Below are positions 16,445-50,191 of a stretch of 64,000 nucleotides of DNA, one piece after another. The stretch is from NCBI RefSeq assembly GCF_003334405.1, contig NZ_QOWM01000005.1, one strand, 5' to 3'. The first letter of the stretch is position 1. Every line of letters starts with the position of its first letter. A program made the position numbers and the translations under genes. The notes beneath the pieces are model-generated. The model saw only the letters and a list, made by a program, of their open reading frames with translations. It was not told the DNA's origin and did no database searches. This stretch comes from Escherichia coli (GTDB lineage: Bacteria > Pseudomonadota > Gammaproteobacteria > Enterobacterales > Enterobacteriaceae).

Positions 16445-17476
16445 ATGTCTGCATTTACCCCGGCAAGTGAAGTCTTGCTGCGTCACAGTGATGATTTCGA
16501 ACAAAGCCGTATTCTGTTTGCCGGAGACTTACAGGATGACCTGCCCGCGCGTTTAGATACCGCGGCCAGCCGTGCTCATACCCAGCAATTCCACCACTGG
16601 CAGGTGTTAAGCCGCCAGATGGGGGATAACGCCCGTTTTAGTCTGGTCGCCACGGCGAATGATGTCGCAGATTGCGATACGCTGATTTACTACTGGCCGA
16701 AGAACAAACCGGAAGCCCAGTTCCAGTTGATGAATTTACTTTCTCTGCTGCCGGTGGGGACGGATATTTTTGTCGTTGGCGAGAACCGCAGCGGCGTGCG
16801 CAGCGCCGAGCAGATGCTGGCAGATTATGCGCCGTTGAATAAAGTCGACAGCGCTCGTCGCTGTGGCCTCTATTTTGGTCGTCTGGAAAAACAGCCAGTA
16901 TTTGATGCGGATAAATTCTGGGGCGAATACAGCGTCGATGGCCTGACGATCAAAACGCTGCCGGGCGTGTTTAGCCGCGACGGTCTGGATGTCGGTAGCC
17001 AGTTGCTGCTCTCGACGTTAACTCCGCACACGAAAGGTAAAGTGCTGGATGTCGGCTGTGGCGCGGGGGTGCTTTCAGTTGCCTTTGCGCGCCATTCACC
17101 GAAAATTCGTCTCACCTTGTGCGATGTCTCTGCCCCGGCGGTAGAAGCCAGCCGTGCGACGCTTGCGGCCAACGGTGTTGAAGGTGAAGTCTTTGCCAGC
17201 AACGTCTTTTCCGAGGTGAAAGGTCGTTTTGATATGATCATCTCCAACCCGCCGTTCCACGATGGGATGCAAACCAGCCTGGATGCGGCGCAAACGCTGA
17301 TTCGCGGCGCGGTGCGTCATCTTAATAGCGGCGGCGAGCTGCGAATTGTAGCGAACGCCTTCCTGCCTTATCCGGACGTGCTGGATGAGACATTTGGCTT
17401 CCATGAAGTGATTGCGCAAACCGGGCGTTTCAAGGTGTATCGCGCCATTATGACCCGCCAGGCGAAGAAAGGTTAA
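16445..17476 (+). CDS. rsmC: 16S rRNA m2G1207 methyltransferase
   Basis: 343-aa [31 protein letters not shown] with SAM-binding motif [12 protein letters not shown]. Confidence 0.95.
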
Positions 17477-17485
17477 GTATCCCGC

Positions 17486-17660
<175 letters not shown>

Positions 17661-17707
17661 CTGATGGACATTTTTCCAGCAATTACACCTCCGGCGATAA
17701 TTAACTA

Positions 17708-17735
17708 TTGACGAAAAGCTGAAAACCACTAGAAT
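17708..17735 (+). promoter_or_regulatory. sigma70 promoter of the tRNA-Leu gene (TTGACG - 16 bp - TAGAAT, GC-rich discriminator)
   Basis: hexamers at 17708-17713 and 17730-17735; gcgcctccg discriminator typical of stable-RNA promoters; about 40 bp upstream of the tRNA. Confidence 0.6.
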
Positions 17736-17776
17736 GCGCCTCCGTGGTAGCAATTCTTTTTAAGAATTGATGGTAT

Positions 17777-17863
17777 GCGAAGGTGGCGGAATTGGTAGAC
17801 GCGCTAGCTTCAGGTGTTAGTGTCCTTACGGACGTGGGGGTTCAAGTCCCCCCCCTCGCACCA
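17777..17863 (+). tRNA. tRNA-Leu (anticodon CAG), single copy
   Basis: 87-nt sequence gcgaaggtggcggaattggtagacgcg...ctcgcacca with encoded CCA end, long variable arm and anticodon loop cttCAGgt. Confidence 0.95.
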
Positions 17864-17901
17864 ATTATCTTTACTTCCTTTCTTGTTTCTTCCCTGTTTT
17901 G

Positions 17902-18138
17902 TCATCCCTGATTCAAATTCACTATCATCAGCATGATGCCAGCAATAAGCGCCAGGCACGATGGTAGCAAAATGTAATGCCGCAACTGTTTGTGATACAG
18001 CATCACAGGCGTCAATACTAATCCCATCAGAATGACAATCCGCCACTGATCCGGCGATAAATCCGCATACATCAGCCCTGCAATCAGCAATCCCGGCAGC
18101 AACACTCCCCAGCCACTGCCCAGCATACGTTGCAACAT
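17902..18138 (-). CDS. yjjZ: small Fur-regulon membrane protein YjjZ (78 aa)
   Basis: MLQRMLGSGWGVLLPGLLIAGLMYADLSPDQW from ATG at 18138; divergent from fhuF. Confidence 0.8.
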   Translation of the reverse strand: MLQRMLGSGWGVLLPGLLIAGLMYADLSPDQWRIVILMGLVLTPVMLYHKQLRHYILLPSCLALIAGIMLMIVNLNQG

Positions 18139-18154
18139 GGTTTCATCTCTTTCA

Positions 18155-18262
18155 TTGATAATGATAACCAATATCATATGATAATTTTTATCATTTGCAA
18201 GCCAGAGAAATCCCTTGCTATCGGGTAAACCTATCGCTAGGATTAGCAATCATTATCATTTA
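18155..18262. promoter_or_regulatory. cluster of Fur-box-like sites in the yjjZ-fhuF divergent promoter region
   Basis: gataatgataacc (18157-18169), atgataatttttatcatt (18178-18195), aatcattatcatt (18248-18260) resemble the GATAATGATAATCATTATC Fur consensus. Confidence 0.65.
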
Positions 18263-18278
18263 GATTACTATCCCGATT

Positions 18279-19067
18279 ATGGCCTATCGTTCCGCACCGC
18301 TCTATGAAGATATCATCTGGCGAACGCATCTCCAGCCACAGGATGCTGGGCTTGCACAAGCCGTACGTGCGACGATCGCCGAACATCGTGAACATTTGCT
18401 GGAGTTTATCCGTCTGGATGAACCCGCCCCGCTTCGCGCCATGACGCTGGCGCAATGGTCATCACCGAATACGCTAAGTTCCCTACTGGCGGTCTATTCC
18501 GATCATATCTACCGCAACCAACCAACGATGATCCGCGAGAACAAGCCGCTGATCTCACTGTGGGCACAATGGTATATCGGCCTGATGGTGCCACCATTAA
18601 TGCTGGCGCTGCTGACGCAGGAAAAAGCATTAGATGTGACGCCGGAACATTTCCACGTTGAGTTTCACGAAACCGGACGCGCCGCCTGTTTCTGGGTCGA
18701 TGTGTGTGAAGATAAAAACGCAACACTACATTCGCCGCAGCAGCGAATGGAAACGTTAATCAGCCAGGCGCTTGTTCCGGTTGTGCAGGCACTAGAAGCA
18801 ACGGGAGAGATTAACGGTAAACTTATCTGGAGCAATACCGGTTATTTGATCAACTGGTATCTGACTGAGATGAAACAGCTGCTCGGCGAGGCGACGGTTG
18901 AATCGCTGCGCCATGCCCTCTTTTTTGAGAAAACGCTCACGAACGGTGAAGATAATCCACTCTGGCGTACCGTGGTGCTGCGCGACGGCCTGCTGGTGCG
19001 CCGCACTTGCTGCCAGCGTTATCGCTTACCGGATGTGCAGCAATGTGGCGATTGTACGCTGAAATGA
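18279..19067 (+). CDS. fhuF: ferric-siderophore reductase FhuF (C-terminal 2Fe-2S Cys motif)
   Basis: 262-aa ORF MAYRSAPLYEDIIWRTHLQ ending CCQRYRLPDVQQCGDC. Confidence 0.95.
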   Translation: MAYRSAPLYEDIIWRTHLQPQDAGLAQAVRATIAEHREHLLEFIRLDEPAPLRAMTLAQWSSPNTLSSLLAVYSDHIYRNQPTMIRENKPLISLWAQWYIGLMVPPLMLALLTQEKALDVTPEHFHVEFHETGRAACFWVDVCEDKNATLHSPQQRMETLISQALVPVVQALEATGEINGKLIWSNTGYLINWYLTEMKQLLGEATVESLRHALFFEKTLTNGEDNPLWRTVVLRDGLLVRRTCCQRYRLPDVQQCGDCTLK

Positions 19068-19073
19068 AAGCAC

Positions 19074-19095
19074 TGCCGGGGAAGTAAACCCGGCA
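19074..19095. terminator. hairpin between convergent fhuF and bglJ (probable bidirectional terminator)
   Basis: tgccggg-gaagtaaa-cccggca. Confidence 0.5.
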
Positions 19096-19104
19096 TCATG
19101 CAAA

Positions 19105-19782
19105 TTAATAGGGATGCAACACATTACTTGCTTCGCAATGCCGCATACATAACAGAATATCTGCGGCCTCCAACAACCCTGCATCAGAACTGACGCCCAG
19201 TTTCGACATCACATTAAATTTATGTGCACGGATCGTTTTAATATTGCGTTTAAGCTGCTCGGCAATTTGTGTCATTGAGTAGCCACGCGACATAAAGCGC
19301 AATATTTCTCTCTCCGTCGGGCTTAGCGTCCGGCTTTGGTTAATGTACCACTGATTGTTCAGTCGGTCGGTCGCCTGACGTACACCATTTAATGACAAAA
19401 AGAGTTCCTGATGAAAAATCTCCAGCGTTGACGCTTTACTTAATACACCGTCCAGCGGTGATGGCGACAATGAACCGATCAGCCGAGCTTCAATATCATC
19501 ATCCGCAATAACTAAACGTCGGGTACGCGGAAACTTAATCGCCAGTTCAGTCAGGCAAGATAATCCCTCTCTGCGTTCACTTCTCATGGCAGAAAAAGAA
19601 AAAATGACCGCCGCAAACGAGATCCGCGACATGGCATCCTGAAATGACTCCTGACTGGTATAGGTATGGAGCTTATAAGGGTTACCTGCAAACTTTCTGA
19701 ATAAACTCTCAATACCGATACTGCTCATGACGCATTTTTCTATGAGTGCGACATTTCTCTTCTTAATTCGGCTGTGTTCCAT
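19105..19782 (-). CDS. bglJ: LuxR-family transcriptional regulator BglJ
   Basis: 225-aa ORF with C-terminal LuxR HTH; overlaps yjjQ 3' end by 43 bp. Confidence 0.9.
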
Positions 19783-28081: not shown

Positions 28082-29276
<1,195 letters not shown>

Positions 29277-32829: not shown

Positions 32830-34980
32830 ATGGATACTAAAAAGATATTCAAGCACATACCCTGGGTGATTCTCGGAATCATCGGTGCATTCTGCCTCGC
32901 GGTAGTTGCATTACGTCGGGGGGAGCACGTCAGCGCCCTGTGGATCGTGGTCGCCTCTGTGTCGGTGTATCTGGTGGCGTATCGCTACTACAGTCTGTAC
33001 ATCGCCCAGAAGGTGATGAAACTCGACCCCACGCGCGCGACGCCTGCGGTTATTAACAACGACGGTTTGAACTACGTTCCGACCAACCGTTACGTGTTGT
33101 TTGGTCACCACTTCGCCGCTATCGCCGGTGCTGGTCCGCTGGTGGGTCCGGTTCTCGCCGCGCAGATGGGCTACCTGCCTGGCACGCTGTGGCTGCTGGC
33201 GGGGGTCGTGCTGGCCGGTGCGGTTCAGGACTTTATGGTGCTGTTTATCTCCTCTCGCCGTAATGGCGCATCTCTTGGTGAGATGATCAAAGAAGAGATG
33301 GGACCAGTACCGGGGACTATCGCGCTGTTTGGCTGTTTCTTAATCATGATCATCATCCTCGCCGTCCTGGCGCTGATTGTGGTTAAAGCCCTGGCCGAAA
33401 GTCCGTGGGGTGTCTTCACCGTTTGCTCAACCGTACCGATTGCGCTGTTTATGGGTATCTACATGCGCTTTATTCGTCCGGGGCGTGTGGGTGAAGTCTC
33501 TGTCATTGGTATCGTGCTGCTGGTTGCCTCTATCTACTTCGGTGGCGTGATTGCTCACGATCCGTACTGGGGTCCGGCACTGACCTTTAAAGACACCACC
33601 ATTACCTTCGCGCTGATTGGCTATGCGTTTGTTTCCGCACTGCTGCCAGTGTGGCTGATCCTCGCACCGCGCGACTATCTGGCAACCTTCCTGAAAATCG
33701 GCGTTATCGTCGGCCTGGCGCTGGGTATCGTGGTGCTGAACCCGGAACTGAAAATGCCTGCCATGACCCAGTACATTGACGGTACTGGCCCGCTGTGGAA
33801 AGGCGCTCTGTTCCCGTTCCTGTTCATCACCATCGCCTGTGGTGCGGTATCTGGCTTCCACGCGCTGATCTCTTCCGGTACGACGCCAAAACTGCTGGCT
33901 AATGAAACCGACGCGCGTTTCATCGGCTACGGCGCAATGCTGATGGAGTCCTTCGTGGCGATTATGGCGCTGGTTGCTGCGTCCATCATCGAACCGGGTC
34001 TTTACTTCGCGATGAACACCCCGCCTGCTGGCCTTGGCATCACCATGCCTAACCTGCATGAAATGGGGGGCGAGAACGCGCCGATCATCATGGCGCAGCT
34101 GAAAGACGTTACCGCACACGCGGCAGCGACCGTCAGCTCCTGGGGCTTCGTGATTTCGCCAGAGCAGATCCTGCAAACCGCGAAAGACATTGGTGAGCCT
34201 TCTGTCCTGAACCGTGCAGGTGGTGCGCCGACGCTGGCGGTAGGTATCGCTCACGTGTTCCACAAAGTGCTGCCGATGGCTGACATGGGCTTCTGGTATC
34301 ACTTCGGTATTCTGTTCGAAGCACTGTTCATCCTGACCGCGCTGGATGCGGGTACCCGTTCTGGCCGCTTTATGCTGCAAGACCTGCTGGGTAACTTCAT
34401 CCCGTTCCTGAAAAAAACCGACTCTCTGGTTGCCGGTATCATCGGTACTGCGGGCTGTGTGGGTCTGTGGGGCTACCTGCTGTATCAGGGCGTGGTCGAT
34501 CCGCTGGGCGGCGTTAAGAGCCTGTGGCCGCTGTTCGGTATTTCCAACCAGATGCTGGCAGCCGTAGCGCTGGTACTGGGCACCGTTGTGCTGATTAAGA
34601 TGAAGCGCACCCAATACATCTGGGTAACTGTTGTTCCGGCTGTATGGCTGCTTATCTGCACCACCTGGGCGCTGGGCCTGAAACTGTTCAGCACCAACCC
34701 GCAGATGGAAGGCTTCTTCTACATGGCAAGCCAGTACAAAGAGAAGATTGCTAACGGTACTGACCTGACGACGCAGCAGATTGCCAACATGAACCACATC
34801 GTTGTGAACAACTACACCAACGCAGGTCTGAGTATTCTGTTCCTGATTGTGGTGTACAGCATCATCTTCTACGGTTTCAAAACCTGGCTTGCGGTGCGTA
34901 ACAGCGACAAACGTACTGACAAAGAAACACCGTACGTTCCAATCCCGGAAGGCGGCGTGAAGATCTCTTCGCACCACTAA
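32830..34980 (+). CDS. btsT: CstA-family pyruvate/H+ symporter
   Basis: 716-aa product from ATG 32830 (MDTKKIFKHIPWVILGIIGAF); track ORF starts 32815. Confidence 0.93.
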   Translation: MDTKKIFKHIPWVILGIIGAFCLAVVALRRGEHVSALWIVVASVSVYLVAYRYYSLYIAQKVMKLDPTRATPAVINNDGLNYVPTNRYVLFGHHFAAIAGAGPLVGPVLAAQMGYLPGTLWLLAGVVLAGAVQDFMVLFISSRRNGASLGEMIKEEMGPVPGTIALFGCFLIMIIILAVLALIVVKALAESPWGVFTVCSTVPIALFMGIYMRFIRPGRVGEVSVIGIVLLVASIYFGGVIAHDPYWGPALTFKDTTITFALIGYAFVSALLPVWLILAPRDYLATFLKIGVIVGLALGIVVLNPELKMPAMTQYIDGTGPLWKGALFPFLFITIACGAVSGFHALISSGTTPKLLANETDARFIGYGAMLMESFVAIMALVAASIIEPGLYFAMNTPPAGLGITMPNLHEMGGENAPIIMAQLKDVTAHAAATVSSWGFVISPEQILQTAKDIGEPSVLNRAGGAPTLAVGIAHVFHKVLPMADMGFWYHFGILFEALFILTALDAGTRSGRFMLQDLLGNFIPFLKKTDSLVAGIIGTAGCVGLWGYLLYQGVVDPLGGVKSLWPLFGISNQMLAAVALVLGTVVLIKMKRTQYIWVTVVPAVWLLICTTWALGLKLFSTNPQMEGFFYMASQYKEKIANGTDLTTQQIANMNHIVVNNYTNAGLSILFLIVVYSIIFYGFKTWLAVRNSDKRTDKETPYVPIPEGGVKISSHH

Positions 34981-36794: not shown

Positions 36795-36997
36795 GGCATA
36801 ATTGCCATCCCTAATTGTATATACAAAAATGTATCTACAATTATTCTGCAATTATAGCGTTGATGTTGGAAATAGCATCACGTTTCGAATAATCAACCAT
36901 GAAATTGACAATGAGTAAGTTGGACTTGATTCATCCAATAGAATTTCTCGCCTGACATGGCACACTAAACACCTCGCTGTCGGGTAATGACTCCAAC

Positions 36998-37501
36998 TTA
37001 CTGATAGTGTTTTATGTTCAGATAATGCCCGATGACCTTGTCATGCAGCTCCACCGATTTTGAGAACGACAGTGACTTCCGTCCCAGCCTTGCCAGATGT
37101 TGTCTCAGATTCAGATTATGTCGCTCAATGCGCTGAGTGTAACGCTTGCTGATAACGTGCAGCTTTCCCTTCAGGCGTGATTCATACAGCGGCCAGCCAT
37201 CCGTCATCTATACCACGACCTCAAAGGCCGACAGCAGGCTCAGAAGACGTTCCAGTGTGGCCAGAGTGCGTTCACCGAAGACGTGCGCCACAACCGTCCT
37301 CCGTATCCTGTCATACGCGTAAAACAGCCAGCGCTGACGTGATTTAGCACCGACGTAGCCCCACTGTTCGTCCATTTCAGCGCAGACAATCACATCACTG
37401 CCCGGTTGTATGCGCGAGGTTACCGACTGCGGCCTGAGTTTTTTAAGTGACGTAAAACCGTGTTGAGGCCAACGCCCATAATGCGTGCACTGGCGCGACA
37501 T
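36998..37501 (-). CDS. insB: IS1 InsB reading frame (expressed as InsAB' by frameshifting)
   Basis: ORF ending [69 protein letters not shown]. Confidence 0.9.
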
Positions 37502-37695
37502 CCGACGCCATTCATGGCCATATCAATGATTTTCTGGTGCGTACCGGGCTGAGAGGCGGTGTAAGTGAACTGTAGTTGCCATGTTTTACGGCAATGAGAG
37601 CAGAGATAGCGCTGATGTCCGGCAGTGCTTTTGCCGTTACGCACCACGCCTTCAGTAGCGGAGCAGGAAGGACATCTGATGGAAATGGAAGCCAC
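37420..37695 (-). CDS. insA: IS1 protein InsA
   Basis: 91-aa [46 protein letters not shown]. Confidence 0.95.
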
Positions 37696-37750
37696 GCAAG
37701 CACCTTAAAATCACCATCATACACTAAATCAGTAAGTTGGCAGCATTACC

Positions 37751-37846
37751 CGGATTCCATAATGATTCCACGCCCCGTTATGACAAATCTGCCGCCGATC
37801 TTGCCTGGCAAAGGACACTGAAATGGTTCGATAAATATCTCTCCTG
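37751..37846 (+). pseudogene. 3' remnant (31 codons plus stop) of a dienelactone-hydrolase-family gene truncated by IS1
   Basis: frame starting directly at the IS1 boundary encodes [31 protein letters not shown]-stop, which resembles a DLH-family C-terminus. Confidence 0.5.
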
Positions 37847-37965
37847 ATAGGTTTATCTCTTACGGGATTACGTCTTAAACAAGCATGAAAAAATAGCGTG
37901 CGCAAAAGTCGTTCTTTGCCTAAAATATCGCTATATATGGCGATATATAGCGAATAAAGTGAACG

Positions 37966-39225
37966 ATGAATAACCATTTTGGTAAAGGCTTAATGGCGGG
38001 ATTAAAAGCAACGCATGCCGCCACGCTGTTTTTCCCGATGGAGTTGATTTTGTATGATTTTGCCGCGTACCTGTCGACGGACCTGATTCAGCCGGGGATC
38101 ATTAATGTGGTCCGTGATTTTAATGCCGATGTCAGTCTGGCCCCGGCAGCCGTCAGTCTCTATCTCGCGGGCGGTATGGCGTTACAGTGGCTGCTGGGGC
38201 CGCTTTCCGACAGGATTGGCCGCAGGCCGGTGCTGATTACCGGGGCGCTAATATTTACCCTTGCCTGCGCTGCGACAATGTTCACAACGTCTATGACACA
38301 GTTTCTTATCGCGCGTGCAATTCAGGGCACCAGTATCTGTTTTATTGCCACCGTTGGTTATGTCACGGTGCAGGAGGCGTTCGGCCAGACAAAAGGGATC
38401 AGGTTGATGGCGATTATCACCTCCATCGTACTGATTGCGCCGATTATTGGCCCGCTTTCCGGCGCAGCTCTGATGCACTTTGTGCACTGGAAAGTCCTTT
38501 TTGCCATCATTGCGGTTATGGGGTTTATCTCATTTGTTGGCTTACTGCTGGCGATGCCAGAGACGGTGAAGCGCGGCGCGGTTCCATTTAGCGCCAAAAG
38601 CGTCTTGCGCGATTTTCGTAATGTCTTTTGCAATCGGCTGTTCCTCTTTGGCGCAGCAACCATCTCTTTAAGCTATATCCCAATGATGAGTTGGGTGGCT
38701 GTCTCGCCGGTGATCCTGATCGACGCGGGCGGCTTAACAACTTCGCAGTTCGCCTGGACACAGGTTCCGGTGTTCGGCGCGGTGATTGTCGCGAATGCCA
38801 TCGTGGCGCGTTTCGTTAAAGATCCAACCGAACCGCGCTTCATCTGGCGTGCCGTACCCATTCAACTGGTCGGCCTCGCGCTGTTGATTATCGGCAATCT
38901 GCTGTCACCGCACGTCTGGCTGTGGTCGGTGCTGGGCACCAGTTTGTATGCTTTCGGGATTGGTTTGATCTTCCCGACCTTATTCCGCTTTACGCTTTTT
39001 TCCAATAACTTACCGAAAGGGACCGTCTCCGCATCGCTGAATATGGTGATCCTGATGGTGATGTCTGTCTCGGTCGAAATCGGCCGCTGGCTGTGGTTTA
39101 ACGGCGGTCGCTTGCCGTTTCATCTGTTAGCCGTCGTGGCGGGCGTTATCGTCGTTTTCACCCTGGCAGGATTGCTTAATCGCGTGCGCCAACATCAGGC
39201 TGCCGAGCTGGCGGAGGAGCGGTGA
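37966..39225 (+). CDS. mdtM: MFS multidrug efflux transporter MdtM
   Basis: 419-aa ORF with MFS motif [16 protein letters not shown]; N-terminal residues and true start not verified. Confidence 0.88.
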
Positions 39226-49519: not shown

Positions 49520-50191
49520 TTTGCGCACTCCTGACGTTTAGCAACATATGCGGCTTGCCCTGAACACCGGGCACCACTGTATTGATGCTCATTTTCCATA
49601 GCCATTCCCTTTTGTTCATTACATCCATGTCAGTCTGAGACAGGCCTGAATCCTGTCAGCAAAGTATAAAACCTTACTTGCCTATGAATATCTACTGACT
49701 TTTCAGGAAAAAAGTCATGATTTGATAAAAATCATCAAACTCAAAAAAAAACCGCTAGTATATTCTGAATATTCCGAATAGTTACGTAGATGAAAATACT
49801 TGTCACCACCGCTACTTAATTCCGGTGTGAAATTATTTATTTCCGCATAATCAGCCATGTATTATTTGAAACAATTAGTTTGTAAATAATATAAATTGAT
49901 AACATATCAAATACATCAAAAATACCATTCACAGGCATTATTAATATAGACATCAATATAGCAACATCAAATTCCAATTAGTAATAAGATATGCTTTTAA
50001 ATTGCATGAAAATAATTTCAAATGAGCGTTTTTTGATACTTTAGAGTGTTTCCTACCCTTTAATATCACCGTGTAGAGTTGATATCACTACAACAGAAAC
50101 ATGCATGTCATTTGTTTACTTCTCATTTTACTACAGAAAAATTTATCTATTTTTCTAAACATCAGTGAAATACTCATAAAAGGTAACTATT

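Follow-up and report, generated by a model that had tools for sequence, protein, structure and literature searches.

Two Fur operators of unequal strength between the divergent genes yjjZ and fhuF of Escherichia coli, and the probable composite origin of their intergenic region

The intergenic region between the divergent genes yjjZ and fhuF of Escherichia coli belongs to the Fur-box operator class according to all criteria open to in silico testing. We analyzed this region within a 64-kb stretch of E. coli DNA (called the window) and have high confidence that it holds two Fur operators that are separate modules, each lying over the core promoter of the adjacent gene, and that Fe2+-Fur, when abundant, turns off both genes. 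The composite origin of the region is well supported by a comparison of 80 species loci.

Fur control of fhuF and yjjZ is already known; previous work includes footprints, ChIP mapping, and measurements in many strains. The claim made in a preliminary description of this DNA thus adds nothing to the biology as it stands, but it confirms that reading a sequence without tools can be enough to recognize a genuine regulatory site. The modular, fused origin of the region is the only new element and makes a modest point of comparative genomics.

Fur-box matches between yjjZ and fhuF

The intergenic region is exactly the 140 bp between the two start codons, as the preliminary description had it, with the A of the yjjZ start codon at 18138 on the minus strand and the A of the fhuF start codon at 18279. 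Its A+T content is 67%, versus 49% for the 64-kb window. The coordinates of the features discussed below are collected in Table 1. The gene coordinates of the whole window match those of NZ_CP172173.1 (strain GF124.3); bases 17700-19200 are 100% identical to this strain and ~97% identical to most other complete genomes. FhuF has a C-terminal CC-x10-C-x2-C motif and scores 478 bits against the NCBIfam equivalog NF007932 (siderophore-iron reductase; cut-off, 300). YjjZ is a hydrophobic DUF1435 protein without an NCBIfam match; published work found yjjZ induced 23-fold in cytosolic Salmonella.

Table 1. Coordinates of the genes, promoters, Fur boxes, and footprints at the yjjZ-fhuF locus (window positions, except for the GGDEF gene, which is given in the coordinates of species locus L020)
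Feature	Position	Strand	Remarks
rsmC	16445-17476	+	Neighboring gene
tRNA-Leu(CAG), single	17777-17863	+	Between rsmC and yjjZ
yjjZ CDS	17902-18138	-	78 aa, DUF1435; ORF and RefSeq annotation of identical record; K-12 b4567
yjjZ-fhuF intergenic region	18139-18278		140 bp
fhuF1 high-affinity Fur-protected region	18150-18202		Mapped from K-12 footprint; 53 bp
Two overlapping 7-1-7 boxes, 6 bp apart	18156-18170 and 18162-18176		2 mismatches each; contain the 19-mer 18157-18175
yjjZ sigma-70 promoter	18165-18200	-	-35 TTGCAA 18200-18195, -10 TATGAT 18178-18173, TSS 18165; promoter scan and mapped published TSS
Best Fur box, TGATAATTTTTATCA	18179-18193		1 mismatch to 7-1-7
Junction of yjjZ-proximal and fhuF-proximal modules	18203-18211		Not conserved; ~1.3 kb including the GGDEF gene here in most other genera
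fhuF sigma-70 promoter	18215-18249	+	-35 TTGCTA 18215-18220, 17-nt spacer, -10 TAGGAT 18238-18243, TSS 18248/18249
fhuF2 low-affinity Fur-protected region	18232-18285		Mapped from K-12 footprint; spans fhuF -10, TSS, and 5' UTR
Weak Fur box, TAGCAATCATTATCA	18244-18258		3 mismatches to 7-1-7; fhuF -5 to +10
fhuF CDS	18279-19067	+	262 aa, ferric-siderophore reductase; ORF and annotation
bglJ, yjjQ		-	Neighboring genes, near the intergenic region
GGDEF gene, Salmonella enterica subsp. arizonae	L020:316-1380	fhuF strand	Same position in 69 other loci (L007-L082)

Fur sites were scored as mismatches to the consensus under three models (19-mer, 7-1-7, and hexamers) and not with the published weight matrix of Chen et al., whose bit scores are cited here for the identical K-12 sequence only. 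The 19-mer Fur consensus GATAATGATAATCATTATC is matched with 2 mismatches on the plus strand at 18157-18175, versus 0.01 such matches expected in shuffles of the window. This is the sole site in 64 kb with ≤3 mismatches to the 19-bp Fur box; the runner-up, 18180-18198 with 4 mismatches, also lies inside the intergenic region. At ≤3 mismatches, the 7-1-7 box TGATAATNATTATCA has 11 matches in the window, and the 4 intergenic ones start at 18156 (2 mismatches), 18162 (2 mismatches), 18179 (1 mismatch), and 18244 (3 mismatches). The 140 bp contain 8 GATAAT-like hexamers versus 1.8 expected at the window-wide rate.

The matches fall into two clusters, 18156-18193 and 18244-18258, which are ~50 bp apart. 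Between them lie the -35 element and spacer of the fhuF promoter, the sequence of which is not Fur-like; the ~40 bp from 18203 to 18243 contain no 7-1-7 match even at ≤5 mismatches. The preliminary description had spoken of one dense cluster, in which three overlapping matches fill the region. The three strings that it quoted are present, gataatgataacc at 18157-18169, atgataatttttatcatt at 18178-18195, and aatcattatcatt at 18248-18260, and the Fur matches here stand above chance in shuffles (P ~0.0002). However, the strings lie 8 bp and 52 bp apart without overlapping, together they account for 44 of the 140 bp, and the supposed single cluster is in fact two operators of unequal strength with two separate published footprints.

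Could an A+T-rich divergent promoter merely mimic the Fur consensus and remain unbound? The consensus is itself A+T-rich and degenerate, and the region exceeds the window in A+T. However, composition-keeping shuffles almost never match what is observed: in 20,000 dinucleotide-preserving shuffles of the 140-bp region itself, the probability was 0.0002 for a 19-mer with ≤2 mismatches, 0.00125 for a 7-1-7 box with ≤1 mismatch, and 0.00025 for at least 4 boxes. Moreover, the boxes are at least 90% conserved over more than 20 genera while the neighboring bases drift, and the published footprints have already refuted the idea of an unbound region, against which ChIP-exo and Δfur data also speak. We consider the probability of a chance resemblance to be negligible. 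The Fur matches are genuine and not a by-product of base composition.

Just past the weak box, the fhuF 5' UTR at 18259-18272 (TTTAGATT) is as conserved across genera as the box. It lies inside the low-affinity footprint and holds further hexamer-like units, for example, ACTATC at 18267, and the Fur array probably extends into it. There is no clear Shine-Dalgarno sequence upstream of the fhuF ATG. Elsewhere in the window, an isolated 7-1-7 match with 2 mismatches is found at the 3' ends of hypT/iraD (49723-49737; TGATAAAAATCATCA), and a run of Fur-like matches with 3 to 4 mismatches in the divergent region between tsr and btsT (33338-33361). Both are probably due to chance; the Fur-like matches outside the intergenic region, of which these are examples, lie within coding regions, at their ends, or at the tsr/btsT promoter region and do not cluster.

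A reading of the intergenic region as an RNA element was dropped, as an Rfam scan of 17400-19200 (E ≤ 1) gave no family match inside it and identified only the tRNA-Leu and a REP-derived naRNA4 upstream. The latter corresponds to REP/BIME-type palindromic repeats 3' of rsmC at 17461-17637 (Rfam naRNA4, RF02564; 65.4 bits against a gathering threshold of 59.5), which yield spurious ORFs in the six-frame list. The tRNA-Leu array between rsmC and yjjZ varies in copy number: there is one copy here and in O157:H7 Sakai, two copies are present in other strains, and K-12 has three tandem tRNA-Leu genes, leuQ-leuP-leuV, at the same spot.

Fur binding, promoter layout, and regulation

The fhuF/yjjZ Fur region of K-12 (Chen et al. 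2007; EcoCyc, RegulonDB) is the same locus with the same flanking genes. Chen et al. 2007 (PMC2189734; NAR 35:6762) scanned this region and then footprinted it with DNase I, and they also demonstrated Fur binding in vitro by gel shift. They predicted two separate clusters, with 16.1, 20.8, and 22.3 bits versus 14.6 and 9.3 bits, and reported two footprints, the high-affinity fhuF1 (K-12 4603763-4603815) and the low-affinity fhuF2 (K-12 4603680-4603733). Their figure legend gives the translation starts of fhuF (4603686) and yjjZ (4603827) and the transcription starts of fhuF (4603717/4603716). We transferred these coordinates by the rule window = 18279 + (4603686 - K-12 coordinate), which is fixed by the 141-bp spacing of the start codons common to both sequences. 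The strongest site of Chen et al., 4603779 with 22.3 bits, then falls on 18186, the exact center of the 1-mismatch box, and the two footprints together occupy ~100 of the 140 bp. For the exact allele in the window, Fur binding and repression are predicted from the sequence, and the published data come from K-12 and other strains.

In vivo data agree with the footprints. A ChIP-exo peak of MG1655 at 4603779-4603794, corresponding to 18171-18186, was present in iron-replete cells only (PMC10164565 supplement). The core Fur regulon of nine E. coli strains comprises 36 genes, with yjjZ and fhuF both among them (PMC10164565). In these strains, the log2 fold change between Δfur and wild type is 5.5 to 11.3 for yjjZ and 2.0 to 8.5 for fhuF (PMC10164565 supplement), and yjjZ tops the core-regulon list as the gene most strongly repressed by Fur (PMC10164565). 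A strong operator on yjjZ and a weak one on fhuF agree with the larger derepression of yjjZ in most strains. The yjjZ transcription start was mapped to MG1655 position 4,605,777 in a genome-wide in vitro transcription study; there was no transcription of yjjZ in the wild type, and the start was seen only in Δfur cells or in vitro (PMC10301672). Published work also placed yjjZ in the direct Fur regulon of the uropathogenic strain CFT073, found that iron represses a PyjjZ-gfp fusion in Salmonella, and used the Fur-repressed fhuF::lacZ as the reporter of the classic Fur titration assay. Hence, the iron- and Fur-dependent repression of both genes that the preliminary description expected is borne out by footprints, iron-replete ChIP-exo, and Δfur derepression (PMC2189734, PMC10301672, PMC10164565), and both box clusters are conserved across species. 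Another MG1655 ChIP-exo row listed for fhuF, 4593337-4593349, was not used; it lies ~10 kb off the gene in those coordinates (PMC10164565).

Both clusters overlap a core promoter. The three strong boxes extend from -28 to +10 of yjjZ and cover the spacer, the -10 hexamer, and the start; the overlapping pair at 18156-18176 accounts for -11 to +10 and is conserved at ≥90% identity in 73 species loci, and the best box occupies the promoter spacer from -28 to -14. We count 16 nt in this spacer versus 18 nt in PMC10301672. At fhuF, the weak box covers -5 to +10. The hexamers of the fhuF promoter were inferred from the sequence, and its transcription start was mapped from the legend of Chen et al.; the distance between the -10 element and the start is short (4 to 5 nt), and both the -35 and the -10 are kept across genera.

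This arrangement suggests how the two operators could work. At the strong operator, with three boxes over the yjjZ promoter, Fur would block the binding of RNA polymerase, as expected from this classical promoter-occlusion layout, which would explain why yjjZ is among the most tightly Fur-repressed genes of E. coli. The weak operator, with one core box, extends over the edge of the fhuF -10, the start site, and the first part of the transcript. It would repress less tightly, and fhuF would therefore respond to small drops in active Fur. Fur is easily titrated off fhuF, a sensitivity that fits a weak operator on this gene and that such an operator may simply explain. The occlusion mechanism and the pairing of each operator with "its" gene are presumed here from the layout.

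Regulators other than Fur might dominate, OxyR in the case of fhuF or sigma-S and others in the case of yjjZ, with the weak Fur box of fhuF being secondary. OxyR is reported to repress fhuF, RegulonDB contains four OxyR elements there, and a weak candidate, an OxyR-like pattern that agrees with the consensus at 13 of 20 positions, lies over the fhuF core promoter at 18220-18256. However, by the same consensus 17 sites in the window are equal to or better than this one. The other regulators act on top of Fur control rather than in its place, and fhuF is derepressed 4- to 360-fold in Δfur strains (PMC10164565). It is highly improbable that another regulator takes the dominant role.

The yjjZ-fhuF region can be compared with the enterobactin regions fepA-fes, fepB-entC, and fepD-entS, a comparison that rests on the literature. 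In these, which Chen et al. cite as footprinted (PMC2189734), two divergent genes under iron control are likewise separated by a short intergenic stretch, with Fur boxes lying over the promoters and Fe2+-Fur repressing transcription both ways. Unlike the shared operator described in the literature for the fep/ent regions, yjjZ-fhuF has two dedicated clusters of very different affinity, and unlike these regions, its operators are separated by a gene in most relatives. The strong cluster by itself resembles the aerobactin operator of iucA (Escolar, de Lorenzo) in being made of overlapping hexamers and 7-1-7 units with 6-bp spacing; its hexamers are GATAAT at 18157, GATAAC at 18163, AATATC at 18170, GATAAT at 18180, and TTTATC at 18187. 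As in extended operators of the iucA type, the strong footprint (53 bp) exceeds one dimer site. In contrast to the iucA operator, the strong yjjZ cluster is shorter and serves a DUF1435 gene.

Probable modular origin of the intergenic region

A scan for FhuF with one genome per species gave 80 loci from Escherichia, Citrobacter, Salmonella, Enterobacter, Klebsiella, Raoultella, Kosakonia, Lelliottia, Leclercia, Kluyvera, and other genera. In 70 of these loci, yjjZ and fhuF are ~1.4 kb apart and enclose a 354-aa ORF with a GGDEF domain (Pfam PF00990, E = 5.8e-47; also NCBIfam), which in every case shares the strand of fhuF. Direct adjacency of yjjZ and fhuF is confined to the four Escherichia species (140 bp) and to six Leclercia/Silvania loci (153 to 166 bp); the GGDEF gene is absent from all Escherichia among the 80 loci.

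The Fur boxes stay with their genes. On the yjjZ side, 72 of 73 loci have two to three boxes ≤70 bp from the start codon. On the fhuF side, a single weaker box with ≤3 mismatches is found within 75 bp before the ATG in 73 of 80 loci, and the best boxes on this side (≤4 mismatches) start mostly 35 to 41 bp upstream of the ATG; among 174,327 control positions taken downstream in these loci, not one matched at ≤3 mismatches. When the locus is split, the strong cluster remains with yjjZ and the weak box with fhuF. Over 73 to 80 species loci, identity to the window is ~90% or more at 18157-18197, in the fhuF -35 element, and at 18238-18266, and within the latter 18248-18266 is at least 90% conserved. 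Conservation collapses between about 18203 and 18211, and the junction between the modules was placed there from conservation profiles and a multiple alignment. A breakpoint search by global alignment with one long gap in 11 species was set aside; its positions were scattered over 18184-18231.

Two independent modules have most likely been fused in the compact arrangement of Escherichia, because 70 of the 80 species have the GGDEF gene between yjjZ and fhuF, with the clusters staying with their own genes. Two independent losses of the GGDEF gene, one in Escherichia and one in Leclercia/Silvania, would be the parsimonious reading under the accepted phylogeny of the family, since the closest relatives of each lineage lacking the gene do have it and the junction lengths differ. 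We infer loss rather than gain by parsimony from the Enterobacteriaceae family tree. Likewise, the strong site presumably belonged ancestrally to yjjZ, and fhuF's own operator would be the weak one.

In the species that have it, the GGDEF gene diverges from yjjZ across the strong Fur cluster and might itself be iron-regulated. The Salmonella gene is probably STM4551; our search of the literature on its control by Fur or iron returned only reviews and no direct link.

The compact region could also be read as one cooperative operator, in which Fur polymerization or a contact between the clusters makes the repression of fhuF depend on the strong, yjjZ-proximal cluster. The two clusters fit into 140 bp, with 65 bp separating the box centers at 18186 and 18251. 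Fur was reported to lengthen its footprints at higher concentration (PMC2189734), a single ChIP-exo peak of W3110 is attributed to both yjjZ and fhuF (PMC10164565 supplement), and a cooperative operator would fit the naming by Chen et al. of both sites as fhuF sites, both clusters being assigned to the fhuF promoter (PMC2189734). However, 70 of the 80 species have only the weak box at fhuF, with the strong cluster 1.4 kb off past another gene, and because these species keep only the weak box at fhuF, this box appears sufficient for the conserved role. Also against cooperation, the stretch between the clusters is free of Fur boxes, the published footprints are two separate regions, and the cluster spacing is off by 13 to 26 bp in the independent Leclercia/Silvania fusions, so that phasing is not conserved. 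With a ~50-bp gap, two footprints, and clusters that are 1.4 kb apart in most species, the region is not a single shared bidirectional operator. We regard a cooperative operator as unlikely and favor two separate operators, each dedicated to its adjacent gene.

The fusion may have had a consequence for fhuF. In Escherichia, the loss of the GGDEF gene would have brought the strong yjjZ operator to -46 to -98 of fhuF, which is where the strong footprint lies relative to the fhuF transcription start, and cooperative loading of Fur from this position may now partly set the iron threshold of fhuF. This rewiring is a speculative possibility that we doubt. If it were true, the "fhuF1 high-affinity site" would be an acquired upstream element and not part of the ancestral fhuF operator. 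The refined picture of two unequal operators may help those who use fhuF as a Fur reporter or model Fur occupancy, and the locus provides a natural system for testing the mutual influence of neighboring Fur operators.

Variation within E. coli and other features of the window

The intergenic 140 bp are present at ≥90% identity in 5425 of 5426 complete E. coli genomes and at ≥95% identity in all but 6. Compared with K-12, 137 of the 140 bases are identical, and the substitutions are at 18140, 18207, and 18240; 18141-18206 is identical, and neither the strong cluster nor the core weak box has a substitution. The fhuF-proximal half, including the weak footprint, is identical to that of O157:H7 Sakai. 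The difference at 18240 is inside the weak footprint and the fhuF -10 hexamer, which reads TAGGAT with the G found here and TATGAT with the T of K-12; the T of K-12 at 18207 creates an extra GATAAA hexamer. The window version of 18225-18290 occurs exactly in at least 3670 of the 5426 complete genomes and is the commoner E. coli form. As judged from sequence comparison, the K-12 -10 allele (T at 18240) is the derived one, because G is the usual base at this position in other genera, and it is nearer to the consensus.

Two further differences from reference strains were seen in the window. An IS1A is inserted between lgoD and lgoR (28105-28802), where Sakai has no such insertion. Between yjiA and mdtM (36844-38468), the window has only a BrnT/BrnA toxin-antitoxin pair, an IS1 pseudogene, and a dienelactone-hydrolase fragment; the K-12 map presumably shows the mrr-hsdRMS-mcrBC "immigration control region" at this position, and Sakai has hsdM and hsdR between the same two genes.
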